Source: a virus (lineage: Duplodnaviria; Heunggongvirae; Uroviricota; Caudoviricetes). Taken from it: DNA of 64,000 bases. Positions 11 to 39,265 of this stretch are shown here, one piece after another (within the stretch, counting starts at the first letter, position 1; every line of letters starts with the position of its first letter). Made by a program: the position numbers and the translations under genes. Where the stretch lies: positions 252,732-316,731 of the IMG/VR virus record IMGVR_UViG_3300037512_000782. One strand, given 5' to 3'. The notes beneath the pieces were generated by a model. That model ran no database searches and was not told the DNA's origin. It saw only the letters and a list, made by a program, of their open reading frames with translations.

Positions 11-37
11 AACTGATACTAACCCAGCGGGGCTGCC
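11..37 (+). promoter_or_regulatory. cassette element copy 1
   Basis: AACTGATACTAACCCAGCGGGGCTGCC; stem AACCCAGCG/CGCTGGGTT. Confidence 0.85.
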
Positions 38-83
38 TCGCTGGGTTATTTCTTTTATACAAACCAACAACCAAGGAGTTAAT

Positions 84-323
84 ATGGCACAGATTGACTG
101 GAATCAGAAAGGACAGGACTTCGCGGAAAACTGGGTACGCGGAAGTCAGCTACCGGAATTTCCCGACGATACAGCAAAGGAACAGTTCACCGAAGGCTAC
201 AAGGTCGGCTGGTGGAACCGTGGAAAGAACGACGCGCAAGCTGGCCGGGAACATTTCAAGGATTTTCCGAACCGCACGGCGATGTTCAGCTACCATGACG
301 GCTGGGAAGACAATTTCTGTTGA
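84..323 (+). CDS. hypothetical protein (79 aa)
   Basis: SD AAGGAG after element 1. Confidence 0.75.
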   Translation: MAQIDWNQKGQDFAENWVRGSQLPEFPDDTAKEQFTEGYKVGWWNRGKNDAQAGREHFKDFPNRTAMFSYHDGWEDNFC

Positions 324-381
324 GGTGAGGCGACTGGGAGAGATCCCAGCCGCCTTTTTCTGCTCGCTGTCCGGATCGGAC

Positions 382-408
382 GACTGGCAGAGACCTTTCG
401 GGACTGCC
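382..408 (+). promoter_or_regulatory. cassette element copy 2
   Basis: GACTGGCAGAGACCTTTCGGGACTGCC. Confidence 0.75.
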
Positions 409-452
409 TCGACAAGATATTTTATTTATGTACCTCAACCAAGGAGCTTTAA

Positions 453-851
453 ATGAAGACCTATGATATCCCTACAGAAAAAAACGTCGTCGCTTTTAAG
501 GACTACGACTTCGACAACCCTTGCGTACCGGAAAAGTACGAGGGCGACTATCCTCACCGTAATTTCTTCAACAAGTACTTTATCCCCATTGTACGCAGCG
601 AAGTGAAGAAGCTGGCGAAGAAGCTTGGCGCTACGGTGAAGTTCAGCTACAACAACTTCGAGTGGACGGCCTTCTTCTGCAAGAACGGCAAGTACGTCTA
701 CGTCGATACGAGCGACCACCGCTGGAACAACTGGTACGACAACGTCATGTACCGCGAGGCCAGCAGCGACCACGACTACCACGGTATCACTGGCAACTAC
801 TGGTGCCGCTACGACAAGCTTGAAGAGAACCTGGCTTCGATCCTCGGCTAG
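453..851 (+). CDS. hypothetical protein
   Basis: SD AAGGAG; C-ending codon bias. Confidence 0.8.
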   Translation: MKTYDIPTEKNVVAFKDYDFDNPCVPEKYEGDYPHRNFFNKYFIPIVRSEVKKLAKKLGATVKFSYNNFEWTAFFCKNGKYVYVDTSDHRWNNWYDNVMYREASSDHDYHGITGNYWCRYDKLEENLASILG

Positions 852-876
852 GACTGTTCCAGACCCAGCGGCTGCC
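852..876 (+). promoter_or_regulatory. cassette element copy 3 (2-nt deletion in the G-run)
   Basis: GACTGTTCCAGACCCAGCGGCTGCC; stem ACCCAGCG/CGCTGGGT. Confidence 0.8.
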
Positions 877-924
877 TCGCTGGGTTATTTCTTTTATACA
901 ACCAACATAACCAAGGAGTTAAAA

Positions 925-1737
925 ATGCCTAAGATGAACATGTACACCATCAAGTTCTACCGTTCCACTGGATACAACTACGAAACCGACGGGTTCCACA
1001 ACCTCATGGATCGCGTGTGGGAAGCGTTTGACAAGAAGCGCGACGAACTTGTCCGCAAGTACAACGGTTCCTCGATCATTGACTCTTTCGTCCACAACAG
1101 CCGTTCCGATCACGACGGCGAAGAAGGCTTCTTCCAAGAAACGCTTCGCTGTCCGGAAGCTGACGCGAACGACCTCATTCGCTACTTCGCCAGTCTCGAC
1201 AGCAGTGCCGATGTGACCCACGACAAGAGCGAAGTCGTAGAATACAAGAAGGCCAAGACGCTCACCGAAGCGCAGCTCGTATTCCGTCGCTACAAAGACC
1301 GTCGCGTAAACCATCTCTGTTTCGTCATTCCGTCGGTCAAGTGCTACGAACAGCACTTTGTCAATGGTGAACCGACCGAATATGTGATCTGCAACCGTAG
1401 CGCACCCATCACGAAGGCGACCTTCCTCAAGATTTTTGATGGCGTGTTCGGCAAGTATGACGACTGCCCGTTTGAAGTGGCTGTACGTGACAAAAAATTT
1501 GTTGCAAAGCCTCGCAATGACGCCAAGCTCTCGTGGACTTACCTCACGAACCTTGGCTATAACACGAGCATTGATAATTTGAAGGCGTTGCTCTCCTATG
1601 CTCGCCACGGTGCAAAGAATATCGACTTCTATTTGGGCGATTGGCGCAATGGCGAAAAGCTCTACTTGTCTGACGAAGTCAAGATCGGCATTATCAAGGA
1701 ACAGATTGCCGAAAAGCAAGCGAAGCTCGCCAAGTAG
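925..1737 (+). CDS. hypothetical protein (270 aa)
   Basis: Start moved from 820 to the ATG at 925 after SD. Confidence 0.8.
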   Translation: MPKMNMYTIKFYRSTGYNYETDGFHNLMDRVWEAFDKKRDELVRKYNGSSIIDSFVHNSRSDHDGEEGFFQETLRCPEADANDLIRYFASLDSSADVTHDKSEVVEYKKAKTLTEAQLVFRRYKDRRVNHLCFVIPSVKCYEQHFVNGEPTEYVICNRSAPITKATFLKIFDGVFGKYDDCPFEVAVRDKKFVAKPRNDAKLSWTYLTNLGYNTSIDNLKALLSYARHGAKNIDFYLGDWRNGEKLYLSDEVKIGIIKEQIAEKQAKLAK

Positions 1738-1739
1738 AC

Positions 1740-1766
1740 GACTGGAAGAGACCCAGCGGGACTGCC
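1740..1766 (+). promoter_or_regulatory. cassette element copy 4
   Basis: GACTGGAAGAGACCCAGCGGGACTGCC. Confidence 0.85.
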
Positions 1767-1812
1767 TCGCTGGGTTATTTCCTTTACATAACCAATCAAC
1801 CAAGGAGTTATT

Positions 1813-2384
1813 ATGGGATGGACAAGTTGTTATCGCTGGTATTCGCCTACCGTGCTTCGCAAGGAATATGAACAGGGTATTGCTCGATCCGGCAAGATCA
1901 AGACGTTCGGCTGGTGCGGAAGCTTTCTGAAGTGCTTGCACGTGCCCACGAACCGTCCGTTTGTCGTCGATGTTATGGTGCGCTTCTTCGGCAAGCACGA
2001 AGGGTATGGCTACAAGGACATCGGGGCGCTTCCGGCCCCTATGATACCAACATCGCCGCCGCTCGCTGGCTGCGTCGTGAGCTTGCCAAGCGCAACCTCG
2101 ATCCGGAGTCCTTCGAGCACAACTGGCTGCTGTACTGTACGCGCAAGGCTCGCCACAACAAGATGCTCAAGGAGATCGCTCCAGGAACGGTATTGACTGC
2201 GCTCAGGGACTTCACTATCACTGGCGGCTACAAGTTCAGAGCTGGCGAAGCGATTTCGGTCATCAGCGTACGTCGAGGCCGCATAATCTGTACGCCTCAC
2301 TTAGCGCACTGGCCTACTATGAGCTTGTCGTCGGATATTTTCATTCCGTCGCCCTACAAGGACTATCCGCTGGTGGCCGTGTAG
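1813..2384 (+). pseudogene. frameshifted phage protein gene (or single-base assembly error near 2020-2030)
   Basis: SD-led ORF 1813 reads ...YGYKDIG; continuation ...GPYDTNIAAARWLRREL is in the -1 frame and ends at TAG 2384. Confidence 0.55.
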
Positions 2385-2410
2385 ACTGGAGGCAGCCCAG
2401 CGGGGCTGCC
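2384..2410 (+). promoter_or_regulatory. cassette element copy 5
   Basis: GACTGGAGGCAGCCCAGCGGGGCTGCC; alternative stem GGCAGCCC/GGGCTGCC. Confidence 0.85.
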
Positions 2411-2452
2411 GTCCAGTTTTATTTTATTTATACAATCAACCAAGGAGTTAAC

Positions 2453-2866
2453 ATGAAAACTACTCGTTCTTATGTAGGCGATGTCCTCATGTGTTCTCGT
2501 GCTATCGCCAAGCTGGTTCCTACTGAATGGAACGCATTTGCTGCAGCGGAAAACGACGCCAATCTTGAATATGAGGAAGACTACAAGCGCCTCGTGTCCG
2601 AAGTGAACGGCAAGCAGCTCCCCAGCCGCTGCGCCAACTCCCAACTGGTAAAGGCTGCTCGCGATGTCGTCGCCGCCGTCGCCGCCAAGGGCATATCGCT
2701 GACCGTCGGCTACATCTTCAACGAGGTAGAGGCCAGCGTCGTCTTCGGCTTCAACTACCAAGTCCTCGACTACTCTCTGAAGCAGTCCGAAGTCAAGCTC
2801 TTCGAGTCGCTGGGACTGGACATCGACGCCGTCTACATGGACAGCACGTCCTACCTTCCCAACTAG
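2453..2866 (+). CDS. hypothetical protein
   Basis: SD AAGGAG after element 5. Confidence 0.8.
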   Translation: MKTTRSYVGDVLMCSRAIAKLVPTEWNAFAAAENDANLEYEEDYKRLVSEVNGKQLPSRCANSQLVKAARDVVAAVAAKGISLTVGYIFNEVEASVVFGFNYQVLDYSLKQSEVKLFESLGLDIDAVYMDSTSYLPN

Positions 2867-2873
2867 GTAGCCT

Positions 2874-3053
2874 ATGAACAAGCAAGACGAAATAGAACGC
2901 CAGAAGGTCACTCTTTATACGTGGGTGTCCAAGGCGTTCTACAAGAACCTAAAATCTTTTACAGTCCCAGAGAAGTATTCCGAAGCGGCGAAGGATATTG
3001 CCAGCCAGGGCAACGGTTTTCGATACGACGGAAAGGTTCTCTCGTGGGACTAG
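2874..3053 (+). CDS. hypothetical protein (59 aa, not in ORF track)
   Basis: MNKQDEIERQKVTLYTWVSK...VLSWD*; fills the gap between genes. Confidence 0.55.
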   Translation: MNKQDEIERQKVTLYTWVSKAFYKNLKSFTVPEKYSEAAKDIASQGNGFRYDGKVLSWD

Positions 3054-3061
3054 GAGCTGCT

Positions 3062-3241
3062 ATGTTTAAATTTTTGAAACGGCTGTTCTGCCGTCATCAC
3101 TGGAAACGTAGTGTACAGCGACGGCGCAATTTCAATTATGGATCGACATCGTTTTCGTACTACGACTTCTGTGTGTGCAAGTGTACCAAATGCGGTAAGA
3201 AGAAACTTATGAAACAGTATCACTGGGTCGCAATGAACTGA
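3062..3241 (+). CDS. small Zn-ribbon-like protein
   Basis: LFCRHHW...CKCTKCGK; SD AGGAG. Confidence 0.65.
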   Translation: MFKFLKRLFCRHHWKRSVQRRRNFNYGSTSFSYYDFCVCKCTKCGKKKLMKQYHWVAMN

Positions 3242-3262
3242 CACCGTTCCGGCGGGGCTGCC
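3236..3262 (+). promoter_or_regulatory. cassette element copy 6
   Basis: AACTGACACCGTTCCGGCGGGGCTGCC. Confidence 0.85.
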
Positions 3263-3309
3263 TCGCTGGGTTATTTTCTTTATACAACCAATCAACCAAG
3301 GAGTTAACA

Positions 3310-3906
3310 ATGAAAAGATTGTTCAAGAAGGGCGACAAGGTCAACGTGAGCGGCGACTTGTCCAGTAAGGATTACAACGTGCGCGTTTCTTCTCCGGCTG
3401 TCGTCGATGAAGACCAGAAGACGAGCCGTTCTAACGTGTGGGTGACTATCGCCGAAGTAGACGGCGACCATAACGTGTCGCTCTACATCAAGCCGCGTAT
3501 GCTGTCGCTCGTCAAGGAAGAGCTGCCGCGTATCGAGAGCGACGACACCACTCGTGTCTGGGTCAACGAGGAAGCCGGACTGGTCGTGACGGACTTCTTG
3601 GGTTCTGGTGACAATCTGGACGACGACGACATCAAGCAGGGCTTCCACGCCTACTCGATGAACTCCGTCTACCACTTCGACCAGTTCCCAGAAGAGACGT
3701 TCGACTTCTCCAAGCTCGAAGACGTGAATGACGGCGACCTCGACTATGACGGCGACACTGTGGACTGCTACGACAGCAGCATGACCCTTCTGCACAACAC
3801 CGACGAATACGACAAGAAGGAACACTTCGAAATTATTCTCGGTATGCTCAACGTGACCCAGAAGGACGGCTGGAAACAAGTCGCTGGGCCGTTCTTCAAC
3901 GACTAA
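3310..3906 (+). CDS. hypothetical acidic protein
   Basis: SD after element 6. Confidence 0.8.
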   Translation: MKRLFKKGDKVNVSGDLSSKDYNVRVSSPAVVDEDQKTSRSNVWVTIAEVDGDHNVSLYIKPRMLSLVKEELPRIESDDTTRVWVNEEAGLVVTDFLGSGDNLDDDDIKQGFHAYSMNSVYHFDQFPEETFDFSKLEDVNDGDLDYDGDTVDCYDSSMTLLHNTDEYDKKEHFEIILGMLNVTQKDGWKQVAGPFFND

Positions 3907-3933
3907 GACTGGCGATAATCCGGCGGGGCTGCC
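3907..3933 (+). promoter_or_regulatory. cassette element copy 7
   Basis: GACTGGCGATAATCCGGCGGGGCTGCC; stem AATCCGGCG/CGCCGGATT. Confidence 0.85.
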
Positions 3934-3973
3934 TCGCCGGATTATTTTCTTTATACAACCAAGGAGATCAACC

Positions 3974-4411
3974 ATGCCTACCATGAGAGAATTTATCCAG
4001 TCCAATCCGGTCATCTTCGGCAACAAGCGTTTCACCAAGGCTCTTGACAAAGTATTCGGCGACGACCAGTCCAAGCACACCGTTCAGTTCACTTCAGACG
4101 GCGAGCGCGTCAACATCAATTACGCCTCGAAGGACGAAGGCAATCTCATCTTCCAACTCTGCAAAAACAGGGTTGGCGACGGCGAACCCTTCCCAGAATC
4201 GATCGAGGTGCGCCTCTATTACAAGTACAACGGCAGAGATATCTTCCATGACGGCTTCCAGTGCAAGTTCATACCGTACAACGCTACCCAGCAGACCATG
4301 ACAGCGGTACTGCGGCAGCTGTTCAAGATCCACAGTGAAATGACAAACATTCGGCGAGCCCAAGCACAAATCCATAGCCACTTGTTAAAGCTCCACAAGA
4401 TCATGGACTGA
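3974..4411 (+). CDS. hypothetical protein, paralog of 12289-12720
   Basis: Shared NPVIF/HPVLF and AQAQI/HQAQI motifs. Confidence 0.8.
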   Translation: MPTMREFIQSNPVIFGNKRFTKALDKVFGDDQSKHTVQFTSDGERVNINYASKDEGNLIFQLCKNRVGDGEPFPESIEVRLYYKYNGRDIFHDGFQCKFIPYNATQQTMTAVLRQLFKIHSEMTNIRRAQAQIHSHLLKLHKIMD

Positions 4412-4432
4412 CCCAGATCCGGCGGGGCTGCC
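4406..4432 (+). promoter_or_regulatory. cassette element copy 8
   Basis: GACTGACCCAGATCCGGCGGGGCTGCC; alternative stem GGGGCTGC/GCAGCCCC. Confidence 0.85.
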
Positions 4433-4471
4433 ACGCAGCCCCATTTCTTTTATACAACCAAGGAGTTAAAC

Positions 4472-4987
4472 ATGAGCGTTATCTACAACAACACCAAAAA
4501 TGCAACATTTGAAACCGCGAACGCATTCCTCGAAGCTCGCGCTCGCGAAGCTGGCCTCAAGGATTTCGAGTTCGAAAAGGCGTACACCTATCTGAACACG
4601 GAAGTCATCAGTGAAGGACACACGATCGAGTGCGTGTACTTTGAACACAAGTTGAGCCGCCGCAGTATCGGCGTGACCGTCGAGGACGGCGAGGTCACGA
4701 AGGTACTGGTGTACGACACGAACGGCGACTGTCTGAACGTCAAGCTGAACAGCGCAGCCAAGATTCGCAAGAACCCCAAGGACTTCTTCAAGCAGACCTT
4801 GACGCCCAAGAAATACAGTGCGTCGGCGAGCATTAACTACACTATCGAGGTCGAGTGCGTGGCCTACGACGAGGACGAAGCTCGCGAGAAGCTGAAAGAA
4901 GCTGCTTACAACAACTATCTGACAGCGAAGATCGACGGCGTTGACGCTACAATCGACGACATCAGCGACGACGGCTACGTAAAATAA
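4472..4987 (+). CDS. hypothetical protein
   Basis: SD after element 8. Confidence 0.8.
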   Translation: MSVIYNNTKNATFETANAFLEARAREAGLKDFEFEKAYTYLNTEVISEGHTIECVYFEHKLSRRSIGVTVEDGEVTKVLVYDTNGDCLNVKLNSAAKIRKNPKDFFKQTLTPKKYSASASINYTIEVECVAYDEDEAREKLKEAAYNNYLTAKIDGVDATIDDISDDGYVK

Positions 4988-5014
4988 GACTGGCGATAAC
5001 TCGGCGGGGCTGCC
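4988..5014 (+). promoter_or_regulatory. cassette element copy 9
   Basis: GACTGGCGATAACTCGGCGGGGCTGCC. Confidence 0.85.
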
Positions 5015-5054
5015 TCGCTGGGTTATTTTATTTTCACAACCAAGGAGATCTAAG

Positions 5055-5336
5055 ATGGCTACGAAAAAGCAAACCAAGAAGTCTAAAATGTTTCATTTGA
5101 GCGGCTTTCACAAATTCGAGGACGGCATTGAAATTATTAACGTCGAAACACTGTATACGACTCGCCGCAAGGCCGCCAAGGAAATCGCCGACATAATGAA
5201 CGAAACTATCCAGGAAAGCCGCTCTGACAAGCCGAAGGTAAAGGTCGCCGACTGCATGGACGGCTACAGACTGTCGCCGCATGACAGTTTCGAGGAGATC
5301 GGCATTGATATTGTCGAGTCGCACTTACCAGAATAG
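5055..5336 (+). CDS. hypothetical protein
   Basis: SD after element 9. Confidence 0.75.
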   Translation: MATKKQTKKSKMFHLSGFHKFEDGIEIINVETLYTTRRKAAKEIADIMNETIQESRSDKPKVKVADCMDGYRLSPHDSFEEIGIDIVESHLPE

Positions 5337-5362
5337 ACTGGTGCTGGATCGGCGGGACTGCC
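5336..5362 (+). promoter_or_regulatory. cassette element copy 10
   Basis: GACTGGTGCTGGATCGGCGGGACTGCC; stem GATCGGCG/CGCCGATC. Confidence 0.85.
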
Positions 5363-5410
5363 TCGCCGATCTATTCCCTTTATACAACCAATCAACCAAG
5401 GAGTTCTAAC

Positions 5411-6070
5411 ATGCTTTCAAGAGACCAGCTCATCCGTACTTGCCAAGACAACAACATCACGTGCCTTATGTGCTGCCAAGGCTACGAGGCCACCGAAGAG
5501 GACGTTCTGAACGACAACCCAGAACTTGCGCCGGACAACGACGACGCACAGTATCCCAGCCCAGAAGTCCAAAAGGAACGTGACCTCAAGGAATCGGTCA
5601 TGATCCGTATGCTGCAAGAAAACCTCGACTTCGGCCCTCTGATGGAAACCGACGACGAAACCGACCGTGACGATCATTCAGAACGCATGGGCGCTCGCTG
5701 CGACATCGTGGAAGTAATCGCCGAACGCTGGGTGGCTGGTTCCTACTCGGACAACTACCAGAAGACCGAACTGGAACTGGCTCAGGCCGACTGCAACGTG
5801 CTGGTTTCCAAGTGGTACGGTTCAGAACTACTCGACGAAATCGTCGAAGCTCTCTGGGCTACTGGGGAAACTATCACGAACGAACGTGTCGCCGAATACG
5901 TCGGTAGGACAAAGATTGCAGAATTTTTCACTACGACCTCTGCAAAGAACGCCGACGAATTTGCCGAAGAATGTTCTACTGGCTTCTCTGGCAGCCCTAT
6001 CGACGGCTCGCCGTTCACTCGTGACGCCAGCGACGCCTACGCCCACGAATACTGGGACGCCCACGTCTAA
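5411..6070 (+). CDS. hypothetical acidic protein
   Basis: SD after element 10. Confidence 0.8.
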   Translation: MLSRDQLIRTCQDNNITCLMCCQGYEATEEDVLNDNPELAPDNDDAQYPSPEVQKERDLKESVMIRMLQENLDFGPLMETDDETDRDDHSERMGARCDIVEVIAERWVAGSYSDNYQKTELELAQADCNVLVSKWYGSELLDEIVEALWATGETITNERVAEYVGRTKIAEFFTTTSAKNADEFAEECSTGFSGSPIDGSPFTRDASDAYAHEYWDAHV

Positions 6071-6097
6071 GACTGGAACGGATCCGGCGGGGCTGCC
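6071..6097 (+). promoter_or_regulatory. cassette element copy 11
   Basis: GACTGGAACGGATCCGGCGGGGCTGCC. Confidence 0.85.
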
Positions 6098-6150
6098 TCG
6101 CCGGATTATTCATTCTACACAACCAAACAACAAACAACCAAGGAGTTATT

Positions 6151-7035
6151 ATGAAGGTTATTTCTCTGTTCGACGGCATTTCTTGCGGTCAAGTCGCTCT
6201 CAACCGTGCTGGCATCAAGGTAGACCAGTACGTCGCCTTCGAGATCGAGGCTTCCGCCATCAAGATCACCCAAGCCAACTTCCCTGACACTGTCCAAGGC
6301 GGCGACGTGACCAAGGCCGACTTCACCCAGTACCCAGCCGACCTCATCATCGGCGGCAGCCCTTGCCAGTTCTGGTCTGGCGCTCGCGCTGGCCACGGTC
6401 GCGAAACTACAGCCGACGGTCTGGGCTGGTCGCTCTTCCAGCAGTATGTCCGCGCCAAGAACGAAAGCGGCGCTCGCTGGTTCCTCTACGAGAACAACGC
6501 CTCGATCCACCAGAACATCAAGGACGCCATCAGTGACGCGCTGGGTGTCCAGCCGATCGAGATCAACTCCGCGCTGGTATCCGCCCAGAACCGCCGTCGC
6601 TGCTACTGGACGAACATTCCCAACGTGGCACAGCCAGCCGACCGTGGGATCTTGTTGTCGTCCGTACTGGAACACGGCACTGTTGACCGCGAAAAATCTT
6701 TGTGCTTGACGCGCCGCTATTCCGAAGCCTACGGAACCCAAGCCTATATGTGTCGCCGCTATCTCGGCAAGTCCATGGGTCAGATGGTGTTCGAGGGCGA
6801 CATGGAAGCTCTGAAAAATCTTTTCAAGCGCAACGACCACTTCAGCGACATGGACGGCGAACTCACTGGCTGCCGTATCCGCCAGCTCACGCCGCTGGAA
6901 GCTGAAAGGCTCCAGACACTGCCAGACAACTACACGGCTTCTGAACCGAACCGCAAGAAGCGTCTGGAAGCCATCGGCAACGGCTGGACGGTCGAAGTCA
7001 TCGCCCACTTGCTGTCTGGACTGGCTGAAAAATAA
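6151..7035 (+). CDS. DNA (cytosine-5)-methyltransferase
   Basis: Motif I SLFDGISCG, motif IV GGSPCQ, VI ENN, VIII QNRRR, IX-X LTPLEAERLQ...IGNGW. Confidence 0.92.
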   Translation: MKVISLFDGISCGQVALNRAGIKVDQYVAFEIEASAIKITQANFPDTVQGGDVTKADFTQYPADLIIGGSPCQFWSGARAGHGRETTADGLGWSLFQQYVRAKNESGARWFLYENNASIHQNIKDAISDALGVQPIEINSALVSAQNRRRCYWTNIPNVAQPADRGILLSSVLEHGTVDREKSLCLTRRYSEAYGTQAYMCRRYLGKSMGQMVFEGDMEALKNLFKRNDHFSDMDGELTGCRIRQLTPLEAERLQTLPDNYTASEPNRKKRLEAIGNGWTVEVIAHLLSGLAEK

Positions 7036-7045
7036 ATTTTGAAAT

Positions 7046-7072
7046 GGAGCTGGAGAAATCCAGCTCCGTTTT
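7046..7072 (+). terminator. intrinsic terminator after MTase gene
   Basis: GGAGCTGGA-GAAA-TCCAGCTCC then GTTTT. Confidence 0.75.
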
Positions 7073-7092
7073 CGTCTATCCAGTCCTCTGAC

Positions 7093-7119
7093 AACTGGCA
7101 CACTGGCGGCGGGGCTGCT
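7093..7119 (+). promoter_or_regulatory. cassette element copy 12 (no own stem)
   Basis: AACTGGCACACTGGCGGCGGGGCTGCT. Confidence 0.75.
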
Positions 7120-7162
7120 GGATCGACGTATTCATCAGATACAACCCAAACAAGGAGACATT

Positions 7163-7510: not shown

Positions 7511-7536
7511 ACTGGTTTCGATCCGGCGGGGCTGCC
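7510..7536 (+). promoter_or_regulatory. cassette element copy 13
   Basis: GACTGGTTTCGATCCGGCGGGGCTGCC. Confidence 0.85.
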
Positions 7537-7583
7537 TCGCTGGATTATTTTATTTCTACAACCCACACAACCAAGGAGATATT

Positions 7584-8018: not shown

Positions 8019-8020
8019 CA

Positions 8021-8047: not shown

Positions 8048-8087
8048 TCGCTGGATTATTTTATTTATACAACCAAAGGAGCTAACA

Positions 8088-31244: not shown

Positions 31245-31255
31245 AAGGAGTCATT

Positions 31256-32051: not shown

Positions 32052-32062
32052 TACACTAAAGA

Positions 32063-32089
32063 GACTGTTCCGCCGACGGCGGGACTGCC
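32063..32089 (+). promoter_or_regulatory. cassette element copy 38
   Basis: GACTGTTCCGCCGACGGCGGGACTGCC. Confidence 0.85.
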
Positions 32090-32126
32090 TCTTTGCTTTA
32101 TACAAGATTCAACCAGAGGTTAAAAT

Positions 32127-32540
32127 ATGTTGCCACCCAAGACGATACATATCCTTCAGCACATGGACAGTCAGGAACGTGCAGAGGCGTTCCACGAGCT
32201 TCAACGACTCGGAGTGATTGACTACATGGAAATTGCTGAATGCAAGGCCATGCTCCGTGCAGAGTCTGAACCTTCCGAATTTCAGAAAGCGGCAAGCGAA
32301 ATGCTTCAGCGTGAAGTAAGAGAATTCGACGAAAGAACAAGCCGAATCAAGTACAAGAAATGCCCCGAATGTCATGGCGAAGGAAAACGCTACGTCACGA
32401 CATGCATTTCTCTTCGACAAGGGAACTTCCGTCGAAGTGATGGTTCATACCATTTCGACAAGGACGGAACAGAACGAGAAGCCCAATATGAATGGAAGAC
32501 ATGCCCTGACTGCAAGGGAACAGGAAAGGTAAGGGCATAG
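32127..32540 (+). CDS. DnaJ-type Cys zinc-finger protein
   Basis: CPECHGEG ... CPDCKGTG (CxxCxGxG pair). Confidence 0.7.
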   Translation: MLPPKTIHILQHMDSQERAEAFHELQRLGVIDYMEIAECKAMLRAESEPSEFQKAASEMLQREVREFDERTSRIKYKKCPECHGEGKRYVTTCISLRQGNFRRSDGSYHFDKDGTEREAQYEWKTCPDCKGTGKVRA

Positions 32541-32565
32541 TCTGAAATTAAGGTTCTTTAACCCC

Positions 32566-32594
32566 TTGACAAACACTTTGCTAAGAGTTATATT
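32566..32594 (+). promoter_or_regulatory. sigma70-type promoter
   Basis: TTGACA-N17-TATATT. Confidence 0.8.
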
Positions 32595-32615
32595 TTAGTC
32601 AAGGAGATCTAAAAT

Positions 32616-32894
32616 ATGTCTGTAACGCTTTACCACATCTTGCTAGCCGTGTTTTTCATTGGATTTCTCGCCGAATGGTTTAACAACCGCAAGAAACACC
32701 CTTTCATAAGCCTCGCCGTCAACACTATTCTCGTCATCGTGCTGCTTCCGATTCTCTATTACGAGATAGCAAACAACATGATGTGGGATATAATCTTGGA
32801 TTTTCTGATCGGCATATCGATCGGATATAGGGCGGCTGAAGCCGTAGACCACATCAACGACATCGTAGGAGACGAAAATGACGATACACCATAA
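32616..32894 (+). CDS. small multi-TM protein
   Basis: Hydrophobic; SD after sigma70 promoter. Confidence 0.75.
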   Translation: MSVTLYHILLAVFFIGFLAEWFNNRKKHPFISLAVNTILVIVLLPILYYEIANNMMWDIILDFLIGISIGYRAAEAVDHINDIVGDENDDTP

Positions 32895-33261
32895 CGGTTC
32901 CACCGTGAACATTACTTTGCTTGGAGGCCCGACGATTGTCGCCGCTTGGGATGTCCTTGAAGAATCCTACGGCGCTGAACTCGACGTCGAAACCCTCACG
33001 CACATCGTCCGCAAGGTTGAAAACTCGTCTGGCTACTCCTACATGACGGACGCGGAACGCGAAAAGGAGTTCTGGAAGGAACTCACGATGGCAGACCTCG
33101 TAAGGTGCCAAGAACGCTACGCGGAACGCTGCAAGAGTATGGACACCTACGATGCGTACGACGACATGCCGTTCAGCAGCCACGAAGTCGACCCGGAATG
33201 CCAGAAGCTCGAAGCATACATCGCAAAGGTCAAGAAGAAACTGGAGGCTCTTGATGGCTAA
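32878..33261 (+). CDS. hypothetical protein
   Basis: SD AGGAG. Confidence 0.7.
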   Translation: MTIHHNGSTVNITLLGGPTIVAAWDVLEESYGAELDVETLTHIVRKVENSSGYSYMTDAEREKEFWKELTMADLVRCQERYAERCKSMDTYDAYDDMPFSSHEVDPECQKLEAYIAKVKKKLEALDG

Positions 33262-33571
33262 AGAATACAAGAACCTAGCCGAACAGAAGTGGGACGAGTG
33301 GTGCGATAAGAACGGCATCACAAACAAGGAAACCTTGACGAGGGAACAGATCGTTCGCTTCCAAGACAGCGAAGAGTTCGGTGAAATCCTCGCCTCGCTT
33401 ACGCCCGATGCCCAGATAGCCTACTGCGTGTCCGTATGCGCATGGCCTCGGCTCAAGAAACTCTACGAGGAGTTCAAGAAGGAACAAGCATACTATCAGT
33501 ATGCGATGATGCTGGAAGCCTTGTTCGCTCGGTACGAACAATGGAAGGCCAGTCAACCAAAACCCAACTAA
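33254..33571 (+). CDS. hypothetical protein
   Basis: Start moved to the ATG at 33254 (SD GGAGG). Confidence 0.7.
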   Translation: MAKEYKNLAEQKWDEWCDKNGITNKETLTREQIVRFQDSEEFGEILASLTPDAQIAYCVSVCAWPRLKKLYEEFKKEQAYYQYAMMLEALFARYEQWKASQPKPN

Positions 33572-33582
33572 GGAGAATCATC

Positions 33583-33789
33583 ATGGCAACCTATACGAAA
33601 CAAGATGTAAGGAAGATGCTCTATCAAGCCGCCGATCAGATCAAGGAACTCGCAGACGATTACGTACAAGGTCGTCCGGCTGACATGGGCAAGATATCCC
33701 AGATTCACCTCGGCGTCAAGACTGGACTTGCCGTCATCGACGGATCTTGGGCACACGGCCTTGACAGCGAATTTCCGAAGCGCAAATGA
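33583..33789 (+). CDS. hypothetical protein (68 aa)
   Basis: Start moved to the ATG at 33583 after SD. Confidence 0.7.
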   Translation: MATYTKQDVRKMLYQAADQIKELADDYVQGRPADMGKISQIHLGVKTGLAVIDGSWAHGLDSEFPKRK

Positions 33790-33941
33790 GCTACGAAGAG
33801 GTCTACAAGAAAGGGCTGGCTGTCGGCTGGACTGGCTTGACCGTCCAAGAGCATGCCATCCTTCTTTATTACAAGGTCACTGAACGTGTCCTTGAATCCG
33901 AACGCACAACCAAAGGAGAATCCGAATGTTCCTCGAAATAA
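33786..33941 (+). CDS. hypothetical protein (51 aa, not in track)
   Basis: ATGA overlap with the upstream stop; MSYEEVYKKG... Confidence 0.45.
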   Translation: MSYEEVYKKGLAVGWTGLTVQEHAILLYYKVTERVLESERTTKGESECSSK

Positions 33942-34759
33942 TCTTGGCTGGTTTGGTCGCATACAGCGCCCACAACTCGGCACACAATGCCGCCAATAAC
34001 GCCACCGCATCTGTAATCGGCGCAGTCGAAAAGTCTACAAACAAGCTGGAACGCCATTTGTCCGTAGTCGAACTGAAGGTAGACCAGCTCAACATCAAGT
34101 TGGACACCAACCAAGTCCGTCTTATGAGGGCGATGACCTGGCACGACTACATCCAGACGCTCCATGTCAAGGGCGCGAAGTACAAGGGAGATAACTTGTA
34201 TGTGTACAAGGAGAAGCGCACCACTACGACGGCTGACCTCGTGACGAAGGAAGTCAAGGAAGTCAACGGACGCTTTACCCTGCTCAAGAACTTCAACGAC
34301 GATACAGAGAAGCTGTATGCGGAAGATTACCTTGTCTACGAAAAGTTCCCAAATGGCGAGATAAAGGTATATGATGACCAAGGCCGCGTGTATATGCACA
34401 CGAACCTAACGCACGACACCTACACATACTTGCCCAACGGAAAGACCCATTCAATCAAGTGGCACGACGGGGCCGTATGGATATATAAGTATGACAGACA
34501 CGGTCAGCCTATCGAAATCGAATCGTACAATATGCAGCCTACATCAAGGAAGCCAGTCCAGCCATTGGTGGAACTAGCTATCGACAAGTGGCAGAAATGT
34601 GTCCAGAAGAATCCAGTTGGCGCATGCGTGTCGAAGTGTGACGGTTCAATGATGTATAACAGTTGGACGGGCCGGACATATCCGTCACACTGCTTCGACA
34701 AATGCAAAGCAGAACAGCAGTCCATTTGCGGAACCAAGCCAGTCGGCCCACTATCATAA
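33926..34759 (+). CDS. membrane-anchored protein with coiled coil, Tyr-rich beta-hairpin repeats and Cys-rich C-tail
   Basis: N-terminal hydrophobic segment; KVYDDQGR, YTYLPNGK, YKYDRHGQ repeats; six C-terminal Cys. Confidence 0.75.
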   Translation: MFLEIILAGLVAYSAHNSAHNAANNATASVIGAVEKSTNKLERHLSVVELKVDQLNIKLDTNQVRLMRAMTWHDYIQTLHVKGAKYKGDNLYVYKEKRTTTTADLVTKEVKEVNGRFTLLKNFNDDTEKLYAEDYLVYEKFPNGEIKVYDDQGRVYMHTNLTHDTYTYLPNGKTHSIKWHDGAVWIYKYDRHGQPIEIESYNMQPTSRKPVQPLVELAIDKWQKCVQKNPVGACVSKCDGSMMYNSWTGRTYPSHCFDKCKAEQQSICGTKPVGPLS

Positions 34760-34768
34760 GGAGAAACC

Positions 34769-35158
34769 ATGTACGGATACAAGAAAGCGTGGTCTGCCAA
34801 AGGCCCAGCGGTAGTAAAGCTGGAGATCGACCCGACAACCGCCTTCATGGTGGTAGACATCGCGCACGAGCGTATGCGCGTGAACCAGTGCAAGGTGGTC
34901 GATATCCTCAACCTCGATGGGACAAAGGCCAAAGTCGATTTCGCCGCGTCCTACTACGATCCGTCGTTCATCTACTGCGTGGACGGAAAGACGATGACCA
35001 TGGAGAAGTTCGATTTCCGTTCGAGGTCGCAGCATTCAAGGGGCATCCATTGCTACACCTCGTTCGAAAAGGCGGCAAGCTACAATGTGTTCATCCGTAG
35101 GTTCACTTGGCCTCTATGGAAGCTGAAGACGTGGGTGTTCTACGACGTTTGCTACTAG
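34769..35158 (+). CDS. DUF5758-like phage protein
   Basis: VVKLEID..RVNQCKVVDI..SYYDPSFIY..GIHCY pattern recalled from the family. Confidence 0.5.
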   Translation: MYGYKKAWSAKGPAVVKLEIDPTTAFMVVDIAHERMRVNQCKVVDILNLDGTKAKVDFAASYYDPSFIYCVDGKTMTMEKFDFRSRSQHSRGIHCYTSFEKAASYNVFIRRFTWPLWKLKTWVFYDVCY

Positions 35159-35168
35159 AGGTGTCCGA

Positions 35169-35423
35169 ATGATCGATTGTACGCCCATCATCGTTGTCCT
35201 TGACCTACTTGTTTCCGCGCTGATCGCCGGAATGCTGTGGGGATTGAGGAACCCTGGCGACTTCGGCGGTCTGACCGACGAGGAATACGCAAGGGAAGAA
35301 TTTAGGAAGCAGCACCCAGGAAGGGAACTGGCGATCTACTTGACCCTATTCGTGATAGTGTCCGCCATATCACTTCCGATCGTGCTATCGCTGCACTGGC
35401 GAACGATCTGCATCTGTCCGTGA
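35169..35423 (+). CDS. small 2-TM protein
   Basis: Hydrophobic ends; SD GAGGT. Confidence 0.7.
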   Translation: MIDCTPIIVVLDLLVSALIAGMLWGLRNPGDFGGLTDEEYAREEFRKQHPGRELAIYLTLFVIVSAISLPIVLSLHWRTICICP

Positions 35424-35434
35424 TATCGATGCAT

Positions 35435-35461
35435 GACTGATCCAAGGTCTGCGGGACTGCC
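35435..35461 (+). promoter_or_regulatory. cassette element copy 39
   Basis: GACTGATCCAAGGTCTGCGGGACTGCC; stem GGTCTGCGG/CCGCAGACC. Confidence 0.85.
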
Positions 35462-35501
35462 TCCGCAGACCATTTTAACACGCACACACAAGGAGACTAC
35501 T

Positions 35502-36056
35502 ATGAAGAAGCTTTTACTAATCATTCTCGCTTTCGCCATGTCCGCAGTCGCGGTCGTGTTCGACAATACCATCAACCGCAAGGAAATGCGCATCTACATG
35601 CGCTCTGGGAACTGGAACACTGGCGACCGCTATACTACCATGCCAGTCGTCGTGAACGGCAAGGTGACTTGTCCCTATGTCGGCAGCATCTTCGCCGAGC
35701 CGTACAAGGACGGCACATGTCCGGCGGTGAACGTGTACCACTTGGTACGCATAGCCAGATCCAAGAAGGGTCTGGACTGCTATTACGACTACACGATAGG
35801 CAAGGACTTCATGTTCTCCGTCTACAACCAGCAAGGGTGCCCAGACATCCTAGCCGCATACGACGGACTAGAGTTCTTTCGTGGTGTCTACTTTGATTCC
35901 GTTGACAATTTCAAGCTGTACTACCCGGATTCGCTGCTCACGCAGACCTTCGAGGGCAACTTCGATTTGTATCCGAGGGTGAAGGCGCAGATCCGCTACC
36001 GACGGATCAACATGCGCAAGGACAAGAAGAACGAAGTAATCAGGTTCGGAGACTGA
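35502..36056 (+). CDS. putative exported protein
   Basis: Signal peptide MKKLLLIILAFAMSAVA. Confidence 0.75.
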   Translation: MKKLLLIILAFAMSAVAVVFDNTINRKEMRIYMRSGNWNTGDRYTTMPVVVNGKVTCPYVGSIFAEPYKDGTCPAVNVYHLVRIARSKKGLDCYYDYTIGKDFMFSVYNQQGCPDILAAYDGLEFFRGVYFDSVDNFKLYYPDSLLTQTFEGNFDLYPRVKAQIRYRRINMRKDKKNEVIRFGD

Positions 36057-36077
36057 TTCCGCCACGGCGGGACTGCC
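36051..36077 (+). promoter_or_regulatory. cassette element copy 40
   Basis: GACTGATTCCGCCACGGCGGGACTGCC. Confidence 0.85.
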
Positions 36078-36107
36078 TCCTTTTGTTATAAAAATTTACG
36101 CAAGGAC

Positions 36108-36136
36108 TTGACAAAAGTCAAAATAAGAGTTATATT
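36108..36136 (+). promoter_or_regulatory. sigma70-type promoter upstream of FtsK gene
   Basis: TTGACA-N17-TATATT. Confidence 0.8.
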
Positions 36137-36155
36137 ACTAGGCGGAGGTATCACC

Positions 36156-37826
36156 ATGTACAAAGGTTGCTACAATAGCTATAAGTTCGATATGACCGAC
36201 ACTCATGCCATTGCCTACTACGGCATTGACACCAAGGACTTCACGTTTATAAAGAACAGCTATGTGTTCAATCGTCGCACCAACTTGGAAGGTAGCGCCG
36301 ATGCCGATCTGGCTGAACGTGTTGTCGGAGCTATCTCTAGCTTCGGTGTGAATGGTGTCCAAGTGGATAGCATCGAGTGCGGCCCCGTGGTGACTCGCGT
36401 GAACTTGAAGTTGCCGTATGGTGTTCGCATCAAGACGGTTGCAGACTTGTCTAACGACATCGCTATGCAGCTCAATGTCAAGAGCGTGTCCGCTACTCCG
36501 GTGCCCGAAAAGGGTGTCCTCGCCTTGGACATTCCCGCCAAGGAACGCAAGGTCATCCGTTTGGGAAATGTTCACACGGAGAAGTCTAGCACTATGGCTC
36601 TTCCGCTTGAACTCGGCGTGTCTGTCACTGGCGAAGCTCGTGCTATCGACTTGGCGAAGGCTCCGCATCTTCTGATTGCTGGTCAGACTGGCTCTGGCAA
36701 GTCCGTCTGCATCAACTCCATCATCTGCTCGTTGCTCCGTAACGTGCCGCTGAACGACTTCGACTTGATGCTTGTCGATCCGAAGGGTGTCGAATTGAAC
36801 GATTACCGCTTCGTTCCGAACTGCATCAACAAGAAGGTTCTCGTCGAACCGAACGAGTCGCTTGATGGCCTCCGTTGGCTCTGCAAGGAAATGGATCGCC
36901 GCTATGCTATCTTGACGAAGTATGGGCATCGCAACCTTCAGTCCTACAACGATTGGGTGAGCAAGCAGCCTGTCGGTAAGGATTGTGTAGAGAAGATGCG
37001 CTATGTTGTCTGTGTGGTTGACGAGTTTGCCGACTTGATGATGACTGCTGGCACCGAACTCACGGCAATCGTGCAGAGACTGGCTCAGAAGAGCCGTGCG
37101 GTTGGTATTCACTTGATTCTCGCCACGCAGAGACCGTCTGTCAAGGTGGTCACTGGCGATCTCAAGGCAAACTTGCCGTGCCGTATCGCCTTCAAGGTCA
37201 GTTCCACCACCGACTCCGTGACCATCCTCGGTCATGGCGGTGCCGAACGCTTGCTCGGTATGGGCGACATGATTCTCAGCAACAACGATGTTGATGAGCG
37301 CTTGCATGGTGTGTATCTTGATGACCACGACATCTTCTACACCGTCGCGGTTCTCTACAACACGACCGTAAACTCCATCATTCGCGAAGTCGATTTCGTG
37401 AACGGAAAGGCATCTAACTCGTTGGGCGTTCCGTCTTGGCTCTTGGAGACCATGAGCGAATGCGGTCGCCGTCAGCTCGCTAGCGGTTCTCCGTCTTGGC
37501 TTGAAAAGCTCGTAGATATTAACCGCAAGGTTTGGGATCGCTCGGTTGACGAGAACAAGTACACCTTCGCCACGTTCATGTGCCGTATGGCAAAGTATTA
37601 TGGCGAGGTCGAAGCTATCCGTCCGCTTGTCGCTAGCAGCGTGTTCGGAAAGGCCGTGTCGGCTCGTTCTGTTGGCAATGTGTACGGCACTATGCTTGAT
37701 ACCATGCTTCGTCTTCCGACAAAGTATGCACTTGGTCTCGGATACTCCGACCCTGATGTAAAGCAAGCGTTGAGCCGAACTGCAAGTGTCAACGATCAGT
37801 TGGATTACTTGAAGTCCATCGCATAG
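36156..37826 (+). CDS. ftsK: FtsK/SpoIIIE-family DNA translocase motor (alpha/beta domains; no N-terminal TM)
   Basis: GPVVTR, PHLLIAGQTGSGKS (Walker A), VDPK, VVDEFADLM (Walker B), LATQRPS, GAERLLGMGDM; SD GGAGG. Confidence 0.9.
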   Translation: MYKGCYNSYKFDMTDTHAIAYYGIDTKDFTFIKNSYVFNRRTNLEGSADADLAERVVGAISSFGVNGVQVDSIECGPVVTRVNLKLPYGVRIKTVADLSNDIAMQLNVKSVSATPVPEKGVLALDIPAKERKVIRLGNVHTEKSSTMALPLELGVSVTGEARAIDLAKAPHLLIAGQTGSGKSVCINSIICSLLRNVPLNDFDLMLVDPKGVELNDYRFVPNCINKKVLVEPNESLDGLRWLCKEMDRRYAILTKYGHRNLQSYNDWVSKQPVGKDCVEKMRYVVCVVDEFADLMMTAGTELTAIVQRLAQKSRAVGIHLILATQRPSVKVVTGDLKANLPCRIAFKVSSTTDSVTILGHGGAERLLGMGDMILSNNDVDERLHGVYLDDHDIFYTVAVLYNTTVNSIIREVDFVNGKASNSLGVPSWLLETMSECGRRQLASGSPSWLEKLVDINRKVWDRSVDENKYTFATFMCRMAKYYGEVEAIRPLVASSVFGKAVSARSVGNVYGTMLDTMLRLPTKYALGLGYSDPDVKQALSRTASVNDQLDYLKSIA

Positions 37827-37852
37827 ACTAAAATAATGGGTACGGGGCTGCC
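37826..37852 (+). promoter_or_regulatory. cassette element copy 41
   Basis: GACTAAAATAATGGGTACGGGGCTGCC; 13-bp stem with two G-T pairs. Confidence 0.8.
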
Positions 37853-37896
37853 ACGGCTCCGTATCCATTTGTCACAAACTAACCAAAGGAAGCAAT

Positions 37897-38358
37897 ATGA
37901 AAACTGGATTAAAAGACCTCAAGGGCAATGAAATTAACATCGGCGACAAGTTTCGATTCATTTATACGGATCCTATGGGCAAGCCGTTTCCAGAAACTCT
38001 CGATGACGGCTTGTACGAAATCGCCTATGAACATGGCGCTGTCGTAGCCAAGTACATCGACGGCCACGGCGTAGAGACCGAGAACTCTCGCCTTCTCCGT
38101 AATTGGATTGAGACCGAGGAAGGCCGCTACATCAGCAACTACGGCCCTCTTACCGTCTTCAAGAACGATGTCGTGCTTGGCGAAGTCGTCGAAAAGGGTC
38201 CTGGCGAACTCGATGTCGAGAAGCTTCTCATGACGCTCATCGACAACATCGAATATGTCTACGCAAAGACCGACGGCACGTACGGAAACTTGCATCCGAA
38301 CATTTCTGGAAATGTACAGTACATCCGCGACCAGATCCGCAAGCACAAGAAAGATTAA
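37897..38358 (+). CDS. YopX-family phage protein
   Basis: KTGLKDLKGNEINIGD motif; C-terminal EVVG-like VVLGEV. Confidence 0.6.
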   Translation: MKTGLKDLKGNEINIGDKFRFIYTDPMGKPFPETLDDGLYEIAYEHGAVVAKYIDGHGVETENSRLLRNWIETEEGRYISNYGPLTVFKNDVVLGEVVEKGPGELDVEKLLMTLIDNIEYVYAKTDGTYGNLHPNISGNVQYIRDQIRKHKKD

Positions 38359-38376
38359 CTTTTTAGCTACTACCTA

Positions 38377-38405
38377 TTGACAAACCAGTAGGTAGAAGTT
38401 ATATT
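38377..38405 (+). promoter_or_regulatory. sigma70-type promoter
   Basis: TTGACA-N17-TATATT. Confidence 0.8.
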
Positions 38406-38423
38406 TTAACCAGAGGTAGAAAC

Positions 38424-38723
38424 ATGATTAGATACAAGGTCACATCGACCCACATAAACCCGGCCTACAGACCGAAAATAACTTGGGTGAACACCAAGGA
38501 AGAAGCCGAAGCCGTCAAGGCCCACGAGGCTCCGATCGCCGTCAGCGACATTCAAGAATGCGAAATTCCTGATGCCATGTACGAAAAGATCAAGGCTCGT
38601 CTCTCCGAAAGCGAACCGTTCTGCAAGCTGAAAGAATACGAACAGTTTGACGATATCTATATGTGCTATCGTCGTATGCTCTGCGCCCTCGACGATTTCT
38701 ACGATTCTCGCTACGCCTACTAG
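38424..38723 (+). CDS. hypothetical protein
   Basis: SD GAGGT after sigma70 promoter. Confidence 0.75.
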   Translation: MIRYKVTSTHINPAYRPKITWVNTKEEAEAVKAHEAPIAVSDIQECEIPDAMYEKIKARLSESEPFCKLKEYEQFDDIYMCYRRMLCALDDFYDSRYAY

Positions 38724-38731
38724 GAGCCGCC

Positions 38732-38962
38732 ATGAAGACAAAGTATATGATTCGTCGTGAGTTCTACGGAGTCATGCCTAAGTTGGGTGTATTCGACACC
38801 AAGCAGCTTGCCGAACGGCAGATTCAGTTGCTTCCAGAAGTAATGACGGACTACGACCACTTCGCCGTAGAGGAAATACCTTGTCCGGAATGCGAGGAAG
38901 AGTTCACCATCGACTTCCGTCGAGCAAACAAGAAACAAGATGAGGAAAAATCCAATGGTTAA
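38732..38962 (+). CDS. hypothetical protein
   Basis: Start moved to the ATG at 38732 (SD AGGAG). Confidence 0.7.
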   Translation: MKTKYMIRREFYGVMPKLGVFDTKQLAERQIQLLPEVMTDYDHFAVEEIPCPECEEEFTIDFRRANKKQDEEKSNG

Positions 38963-39230
38963 ATTCTACAAAGTCAGTTTGTCGCTCACTGGACTGATGT
39001 GCCTAGCGTCTGGCGTATACACGATATGGCGTTTCGACCAGTGGAATGACGGCGTTCTCCAAGTGATTTTGGGAACTATCTTACTGGTCGGCTACATCCT
39101 CTTGGATGTCTTGTCGAATATGGCGATTGTCACCAAGGTTGAAGTCATCAAGCCGGACGGCGTGAACGTGCAAATCGTCAACAAGAACTGTATCGACGGC
39201 AACGGGACTGCCTCGGACAAAGATAAATAA
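38955..39230 (+). CDS. 2-TM membrane protein
   Basis: Hydrophobic; reads through element 42. Confidence 0.7.
   Translation: MVKFYKVSLSLTGLMCLASGVYTIWRFDQWNDGVLQVILGTILLVGYILLDVLSNMAIVTKVEVIKPDGVNVQIVNKNCIDGNGTASDKDK
39186..39212 (+). promoter_or_regulatory. cassette element copy 42 (inside 3' end of upstream ORF)
   Basis: AACTGTATCGACGGCAACGGGACTGCC. Confidence 0.75.
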
Positions 39231-39265
39231 GGCACACTCAACAAATTAAACAAAAAGGAATTTTT

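Follow-up and report, generated by a model that had tools for sequence, protein, structure and literature searches.

The 64,000-nt window analysed here (bases 252,732-316,731 of the 348,092-bp virus record IMGVR_UViG_3300037512_000782, Caudoviricetes; 50% G+C) carries a long array of a repeated intergenic element, hereafter called the cassette. From the comparison of its copies, the cassette appears to be a composite element, the invariant part of which is probably a phage-specific promoter for the host multisubunit RNA polymerase. The geometry of the cassette, its strand and position rules, the lack of host-type promoter boxes, an optional covarying hairpin and mosaic boundaries at the element were all observed directly. 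An earlier reading of the same letters (the original prediction) had described a tripartite signal consisting of RACTG, a core and a YAC at exact distances, and had compared it to a promoter class other than that of sigma-70.

An array of rigidly spaced cassettes

The copies were selected by the core alone and were aligned on it without gaps, index (idx) 0 being the first G of GGRCTGC. The window contains 46 matches of the core CGGGRCTGC where 0.9 would be expected, and the whole genome has 72 on the + strand and 3 on the - strand. Seventy-one of these genome matches, at 232,250-297,008 and all on the + strand, were full elements preceding about 70 small genes; the remaining 4 had no flanking boxes and were chance matches. 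The array extends from genome position 232,250 (window -20,481, i.e. 20.5 kb upstream of the window) to window position 41,824, which exceeds the range given in the original prediction.

Each copy is composed of four boxes, the spacing of which is rigid while the sequence between them is variable. No indel between the boxes was found in any of the 71 copies, and the full four-box pattern had 29 exact matches in the window, all on the + strand, against 0.00 expected. Box 1, GACTGgc (idx -19..-13), keeps A(-18) and T(-16) in 71/71 copies, and its RACTG lies exactly 20 bp upstream of the RCTG of the core, as had been reported. Box 2, the core CGGCGGGRCTGCCtC (idx -5..9), has an invariant CGGG-CTGC in all 71. 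In box 3, TATT (idx 17..20), A18 and T19 are likewise present in 71/71, and TAT never occurs at the offsets of +1 or -1. This nAT (idx 17-19) is the strongest downstream signal, and it was absent from the original prediction. Box 4, TAYRYAA (idx 26..32), has a pyrimidine at idx 28 in 62 copies and a purine at idx 29 in 67 of the 71.

The TATAC or TACAC that had been placed 18 nt after the core in 13 copies was exact in 13/13 when counted from the end of CGGGRCTGCC (12 with the full core and the one at 895 with a degenerate core), and all nine listed examples of NNYAC at the same offset were correct. At this offset, the 43 + strand cores of the window showed TAYAC in 12 cases, nnYAC in 26 and a pyrimidine-purine (Y-R) step in 34. 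Since the background rate of nnYAC is 2.9%, only about 1.2 would be expected among 43 cores.

Without exception, the elements lie between genes and point in the same direction as the genes do. The upstream genes' stop codons cluster at idx -28..-10, and a Shine-Dalgarno sequence and an ATG follow downstream. The parts of a representative copy and the limits of the array in the window are as follows.

11..41824, + strand: part of the cassette array that lies in the window, 42 full copies and 1 degenerate copy
3907..3913, + strand: representative copy, box 1 (GACTGGC), idx -19..-13, about -48..-42 from the predicted start
3914..3946, + strand: representative copy, optional GC-rich hairpin with T-rich tail, overlapping boxes 2 and 3; found by terminator scan, predicted intrinsic terminator of the upstream gene
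3921..3935, + strand: representative copy, box 2 (core), idx -5..9, about -34..-20
3943..3946, + strand: representative copy, box 3 (TATT), idx 17..20, proposed -12..-9 of a -10-like element
3952..3958, + strand: representative copy, box 4 (TAYRYAA), idx 26..32, predicted start at the purine 3955 (idx 29)
3959..3976, + strand: representative copy, A/C-rich leader with AAGGAG (3961-3966) and ATG (3974), at a distance to box 4 that varies among copies
852..900, + strand: degenerate copy with the core AGCGGCTGCC, 2 nt lost from the G run; box 1 is 2 nt nearer to the core and the spacing 3' of the core is intact
41773..41824, + strand: last clear cassette copy; a further core match at 44,277 is doubtful, being inside a coding sequence and having no Shine-Dalgarno sequence

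Sub-families of the cassette track position in the array. At 232-240 kb of the genome box 4 reads TATGTAAAC; at 240-265 kb it reads TATACAACC, with G at idx 2 and built-in terminators; and at 265-297 kb it reads nGCACAAC, A stands at idx 2 and most copies lack a terminator. Such a distribution suggests local homogenisation or duplication.

Placement of the predicted start site

Gene starts were anchored on the Shine-Dalgarno sequence. Among the 71 copies the AAGGAG began anywhere from idx 27 to idx 70, with a variable A/C-rich filler after box 4. Since the distance between the two varies, box 4 belongs to the upstream module and not to the ribosome site. In 31/71 copies the Shine-Dalgarno sequence began at idx 34-38, i.e. 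3-7 nt after TAYACA.

The YAC had been proposed to mark either the start site or the -10 region. If TAYAC(A) were the -10 box, the start would be at about idx 38, which in those 31 copies is within the Shine-Dalgarno sequence or past it. This is implausible for so conserved a site, and the assignment was rejected. Because a conserved Shine-Dalgarno sequence begins from idx 34 in many copies, the start must precede idx 34. When TATTnn (idx 17-22) was taken as a -10-like hexamer, the +1 fell on idx 29, which is the A of YAC, 6 nt 3' of the hexamer and directly after a pyrimidine. A pyrimidine at -1 and a purine at +1 are the usual start-site preference of bacterial RNA polymerase. The same -10-to-start distance is seen in the TTGACA-17-TATATT promoters of this genome, in which the hexamer is followed after 6-7 nt by a leaderless ATG. 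Over the first 8 kb of the array, TATGTAA takes the place of TATACAA as box 4; the Y-R step is kept there and the C is lost. The start-site half of the proposal is favoured by these observations, and the -10 half is not.

In this frame the core occupies -34..-20 and GACTG occupies -48..-44, the -35 position reads cCGGCG, and there is no TG extension. No TTGACA-type -35 box was present in the 71 aligned cassettes. Furthermore, a sigma-70 consensus scan flagged no cassette; it returned 13 sites against 11.7 expected, and the sole strong one was a separate tandem promoter at 13,363. Together with the rigid spacing, the strand and intergenic rules and the divergent surroundings of the first copy, the missing TTGACA box points to a promoter class unlike the host type, in agreement with the original prediction.

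We infer promoter activity, the exact start and the assignment of proteins to boxes as follows. TATT would be a partial -10 element (-12..-9), and YAC would provide the start site with its pyrimidine at -1 and its purine at +1. The GC-rich core (-34..-20) would stand in for the -35 box and would be read by a phage-encoded specificity factor, which may be a MotA-like activator or an unusual sigma region 4. GACTGgc (-48..-42) would be a further upstream contact.

An optional hairpin around the core

Every copy was folded, and a terminator was scored strictly as a hairpin ending at idx 14-19 that is followed by a T-rich tail. Such a hairpin with T-tail was found in 29/71 copies, and 33/71 had no clean hairpin. 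The core was in the apex in 24 copies, in the 5' arm in 10 and in the 3' arm in 4. The apex-type hairpins have the loop CUG or GACUG; in the 5'-arm type the core forms the whole 5' arm (GGGGCTGC-CAC-GCAGCCCC), and the 3'-arm type reads GGCAGCCC-AGCG-GGGCTGCC. The terminator-like copies are nearly all proximal, up to window position 11,383, and the distal copies are mostly without one.

In the outer stem of 15 apex-type copies, 16 cells carried a double, compensatory change, a value that was reached in 0/500 shuffles, and controls slid along the sequence scored much lower. Where the hairpin occurs, its structure is therefore under selection. The core, however, never varies although its pairing partner does, and copies without a hairpin may have a separate terminator just upstream (10,179; 13,274). 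Since the core is invariant, the hairpin variable or absent and the terminator sometimes separate, the hairpin is best understood as an optional terminator around a constant signal in duplex DNA. In about 40% of the copies, the GC hairpin around the core, together with the T-rich -10/discriminator stretch, would also terminate the upstream gene.

The array begins with a copy placed between divergent genes, in an intergenic region of about 370 bp; the upstream genes are on the opposite strand and have a TTGACA-17-TAATAT promoter of their own. Since no co-directional gene lies just 5' of this copy, a terminator or processing site would have no substrate there. No Rfam family matched the element.

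Relatives and diverged lineages

No GenBank phage matched the first 12 kb at near identity, and the exact element pattern in IMG/VR hit one locus, a chance match. With the FtsK-like protein of the array as bait, just unrelated small phages at 41% identity or less were retrieved; sigma-B, one of the two sigma factors of the phage described below, retrieved nothing from viral contigs; and a literature string search for the core returned just primers and unrelated text. The element recurs in many rumen-metagenome contigs, with up to 11 copies per locus. In 292 distinct pooled copies, A18 was present in 291, T19 in 292 and the Y-R step at idx 28/29 in 271; RACTG stood at the canonical offset in 248 and at neighbouring offsets in almost none. 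Within the fetched loci of relatives, 204/249 cores fitted the full pattern.

The relatives have single genes in common at 65-93% identity, the order of which is shuffled. The ends of homology blocks fell within -60..+80 of a cassette in 132 of 215 internal cases, against 15% at random. The conserved 50-60 bp may thus serve as joints for single-gene exchange among related phages.

A helix-turn-helix protein encoded at the array's distal end led, by way of its homologues with 55-61% identity, to more distant contigs of two lineages referred to as X and Y. The core is GCGGGGCTGGCCCC in lineage X and GCGGGGCCRACC in lineage Y, and the architecture is otherwise the same. The nAT stays at idx 17-19 in both, the Y-R step is kept at idx 28/29 in 15/17 (X) and 11/14 (Y) copies, and an upstream box GA(A/C)TG or RACTG lies 1 bp farther from the core. 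At the 3' side of the core the variants CTGCC, CTGGCC and CCRACC follow a constant GCGGGGC. By this comparison, the geometry predates the present core sequence, and the 3' half of the core is the putative lineage-specific specificity determinant.

Lineage Y keeps RACTG without an ACTG or GCTG in its core, so that the core and the upstream box do not co-vary. The idea that the ACTG and GCTG are two half-sites of one protein was not supported, because the cores of both lineages lose ACTG/GCTG while the upstream box persists. The two boxes of the cassette are probably not two sites for one protein, given this lack of co-variation in related lineages.

In a relative of lineage X (contig L178, 7811-15113), a Cas7fv-like gene and a Cas3-like gene (HD plus helicase) were found inside the cassette array.

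Candidate reading factors

The original prediction had recommended a search for phage sigma, RNA polymerase or activator genes. Two sigma-70-family genes were found, neither of which could be tied to the element, and RNA polymerase, MotA and AsiA had no Pfam-level matches. RNA polymerase beta/beta' (PF00562, PF00623) gave no match in the genome with positive controls run, although very divergent polymerases could escape such a search. For MotA/AsiA, PF09158 gave a noise match only (E = 0.06, with an internal stop), and PF09114 and PF09010 gave none. A tyrosine recombinase or integrase (PF00589) was likewise not matched in the genome.

The two sigma genes, sigma-A and sigma-B, lie at genome positions 14.7-15.5 kb (- strand) and 198.2-198.9 kb, respectively. 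The region 4.2 helix of sigma-B, SHERVRQ, is invariant in homologues down to 53% identity and is nearly canonical, the corresponding helix of Escherichia coli being TRERIRQ. Region 4 of sigma-B was rejected as the reader of the core, since a near-canonical invariant helix favours a TTG-type -35 box over a GC-rich, lineage-variable core. The region 4.2 helix of sigma-A, SKExIRR, is non-canonical and invariant save for one variable residue. Sigma-A is a candidate reader. A tblastn search of both sigmas against phages found no relative with known promoter specificity.

A pair of candidate DNA-binding proteins was also considered.

42605..43771, + strand: pair of neighbouring helix-turn-helix proteins, weak paralogues of each other, at the distal end of the array, with orthologues in the same place in lineages X and Y

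The pair carries W/Y-x-x-E-D repeats reminiscent of Myb/SANT and a C-terminal helix-turn-helix like those of sigma region 4 or ParB. The genes use signals of their own that are not cassettes, and are separated by a terminator. The proteins are noted as candidates only. The RACTG box resembles the Myb site, YAACNG, and this likeness is the only sign of a link to the Myb-like pair.

Evidence against a factor-dependent promoter and alternative explanations

Several points weigh against a phage-specific promoter of the kind proposed. The -7 position is unconserved (T in 30/71 and A in 26/71 copies), and a T at -7 is normally critical for housekeeping sigma factors. The invariant core is just 8-10 bp from TAT, too near for the canonical contact of region 4 with a -35 box, for which the spacer is 16-18 bp. 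The recognition helices of both phage sigmas are invariant across lineages with differing cores, and neither obviously tracks the core. The search for a T7-type RNA polymerase (PF00940), which gave no match in the genome, was run without a positive control. Moreover, the loci of the relatives were fetched by a pattern that demanded the spacing at least twice, so only the 71 core-selected copies of the genome are unbiased. The core spans one full helical turn, a longer stretch than a single helix-turn-helix usually reads; since it is also too close to TAT, an activator or a remodelled sigma is at least as likely as direct recognition by a sigma factor.

We consider it unlikely that the cassette is a two-box promoter of a phage sigma factor with CTGCC(T) as the -35 box, TAYACA as the -10 box, a 17-bp spacer and a start about 7 nt further on. 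The distance from idx 3-8 to idx 26-31 is indeed exactly 17 bp in every copy, and the phage has two sigma genes, of which sigma-A shows the non-canonical SKExIRR. The start of such a promoter would nevertheless lie in or after AAGGAG in the 31 copies with a Shine-Dalgarno sequence at idx 34-38. Its hexamer has A at position 2 in just 68% of copies, ends in A and not in T, and reads TATGTA in the copies at 232-240 kb, and the nearly 100% AT at idx 18-19 is left unexplained. We also give little credence to a signal acting at the RNA level only, i.e. one long transcript in which the element would terminate or attenuate transcription, direct RNase processing or message stability, or be bound by a regulator that recognises RNA. 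The element does lie in transcribed intergenic space, where many copies form a stable hairpin that shows compensatory changes and is followed by a U-rich tail, and T4 RegB is a precedent for the processing of early messages. However, with 33/71 copies lacking a clean hairpin and the core being apex, 5' arm or 3' arm in the others, there is no common RNA structure. Single-stranded boxes that never vary and stand 20, 16 and 12 nt apart without indels typify a protein on duplex DNA, no co-directional gene lies upstream of the first copy, the Rfam search was negative, and terminators in 29 copies would leave the downstream genes promoterless.

A recombination site, integron-attC-like or another site-specific target by which gene cassettes are moved, would account for the array of co-oriented single-gene units and for the homology blocks of the relatives that end at the element. 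It is nonetheless very improbable in our view: no tyrosine recombinase was found, the element does not form an imperfect palindrome with R/L boxes, and almost half of the copies have no hairpin. A -10-like box and a Y-R step at promoter spacing would be left unexplained, and homologous recombination between 50-60-bp repeats suffices for the mosaicism, as proposed for the promoter-early stem-loops (PeSLs) of T4-type phages (PMC2839356). The last possibility considered was an ordinary host sigma-A promoter that needs no phage factor. The TAT of box 3 is the first half of the host-type -10 of this genome, TATATT. With cCGGCG at -35, no TG extension, an unconserved -7 and no consensus-scan match at the cassettes, this explanation appears hardly tenable, and the host-type promoters in tandem with cassettes would be redundant.

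Comparison with known systems

The PeSLs were described in the T4-type phages RB49 and phi1, where promoter and terminator activity were measured and mini-circle formation was reported (Arbiol et al. 2010, PMC2839356). Like PeSLs, the cassettes combine a promoter-like signal with a G/C-rich stem-loop in several registers relative to it. The PeSL unit of upstream stop codon, promoter, stem-loop, Shine-Dalgarno sequence and start codon is also that of the cassettes. Both form dense arrays before small unknown genes, and in both, relatives are distinguished by entire cassettes, exchange having taken place at the element. The PeSL promoters, however, match the E. coli sigma-70 consensus (TTGACA/TATAAT) and have an AT-rich upstream region, whereas the cassettes have no -35 box, a GC-rich invariant core, an upstream GACTG at indel-free spacing and a -10 match of just TATT.

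In T4 middle promoters the MotA box, (a/t)(a/t)(a/t)TGCTTtA, lies 12 +/- 1 bp upstream of a sigma-70 -10 element and works through sigma appropriation by AsiA/MotA (Hinton 2010, PMC2988021). The cassettes resemble them in having a -10-like element with a phage-specific box that replaces the -35 at a fixed distance, and in the large pre-late gene set. They differ in the box (CGGGRCTGCC and not TGCTT), in the distance (8-10 bp with zero tolerance, against 12 +/- 1), in the extra upstream box and in a poor -7. The -10 of T4 middle promoters is an excellent TAtaaT; in the cassettes T-12, A-11 and T-10 are near-invariant, and T is at -7 in 30/71. Judged by these likenesses, the cassette would work like a PeSL and its promoter logic would be that of a T4 middle promoter, but it departs from both in the defining sequence and in the factors.

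The CII-dependent promoters of lambda have an activator site of direct repeats, TTGC-N6-TTGC, that straddle a poor -35. The cassettes share with them short direct repeats that overlap the -35/spacer region of a promoter without a good -35; the period of the repeats is 20 bp in the cassettes and 10 in lambda.

Other identities were rejected. A sigma-54 promoter has GG at -24 and GC at -12, 10 bp apart, whereas the GG and GC of the core are 5 bp apart at about -29/-23. The T4 late promoter (TATAAATA) was likewise discarded as the identity of the element. For a MotA/AsiA middle promoter, box sequence, spacing and factors all fail. An integron attC is a palindrome (R''-L''/L'-R') that folds in every copy and is accompanied by a tyrosine integrase; 33/71 cassettes have no hairpin and PF00589 had no match. 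A promoter of a T7-like or phage multisubunit RNA polymerase was set aside, no phage RNA polymerase having been matched at Pfam level.

If the cassettes are promoters, about 70 genes, covering about one fifth of the 348-kb genome by length, would form one regulon under one phage factor. The geometry of the boxes predicts start sites and contact points precisely. The lineage-specific cores would offer a natural swap system for identifying the factor and could yield orthogonal promoter/factor pairs. The PeSL principle of a promoter-terminator joint for the shuffling of single genes would also be extended, from the sigma-70-type promoters of T4-like coliphages to a different class in uncultured phages. 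We tentatively suggest that widespread, uncultured jumbo phages of the rumen may have an undescribed, rigid four-box promoter architecture, the lineage-diverged -30 box of which would point to an undiscovered, co-evolving factor that redirects the host RNA polymerase. Such a specificity factor might act by an analogue of sigma appropriation to which it has no homology, or it might be a sigma whose region 4 has a new geometry.

Other promoter classes and genes of the genome

Two host-type promoters stand in tandem with cassettes in the window.

13363..13391, + strand: TTGACA-17-TATATT, just 3' of the cassette at 13,344; found by the sigma-70 scan
36108..36136, + strand: TTGACA-17-TATATT, between the cassette at 36,070 and the FtsK-like gene; lineages X and Y have this tandem as well

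These tandems suggest that the two signals are not redundant and that they serve different times or different factors.

At least three promoter classes besides the cassettes occur in the genome. The TTGACA-17-TATATT promoters form an early class, the messages of which are often leaderless. The consensus lies 6-7 nt before the ATG at window positions 48923, 58618 and 62574 (gene starts on the - strand) and at other sites of the genome, an arrangement that implies leaderless messages. Of the 178 + strand Shine-Dalgarno starts, 118 fall at 230-300 kb, i.e. they are concentrated in the cassette array. A replication class, TTGnAATTCAAA-N11-TAnnnT, has an extended -35 box and precedes replication genes and sigma-A. 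Eight such promoters were located, at genome positions 15,556, 41,370, 51,764, 62,179, 66,335, 88,690, 88,903 and 158,001, one of them before the sigma-A gene. In addition, about 30 copies of AACTGATAAACT (TGA + TAAACT, an extended -10 without a -35 box) occur on both strands at 74,565-178,700 and at scattered sites; they mostly follow terminators and precede large structural genes, and they are probably a late promoter class. Like the cassettes, these other classes have TA at -12/-11 and a comparable -10-to-start distance; unlike them, none has a GC-rich core.

Within the array, just before the cassette at 12,241, the Rfam tRNA model matched window positions 12051-12171 (+ strand) with 40.7 bits over 121 nt, and ARAGORN found no tRNA anywhere in the window. 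The genes predicted to be driven by cassettes include a DNA methyltransferase at window 6151-7035 (+ strand; PHROG 116, E = 1e-44), and BLAST matches of the relatives hint at a diverged second copy of it near genome position 182.8-183.6 kb. Two further genes of this set encode a GP88 protein (PF17338; window 9361-10155, + strand) and an FtsK/SpoIIIE-like translocase (window 36157-37826, + strand).

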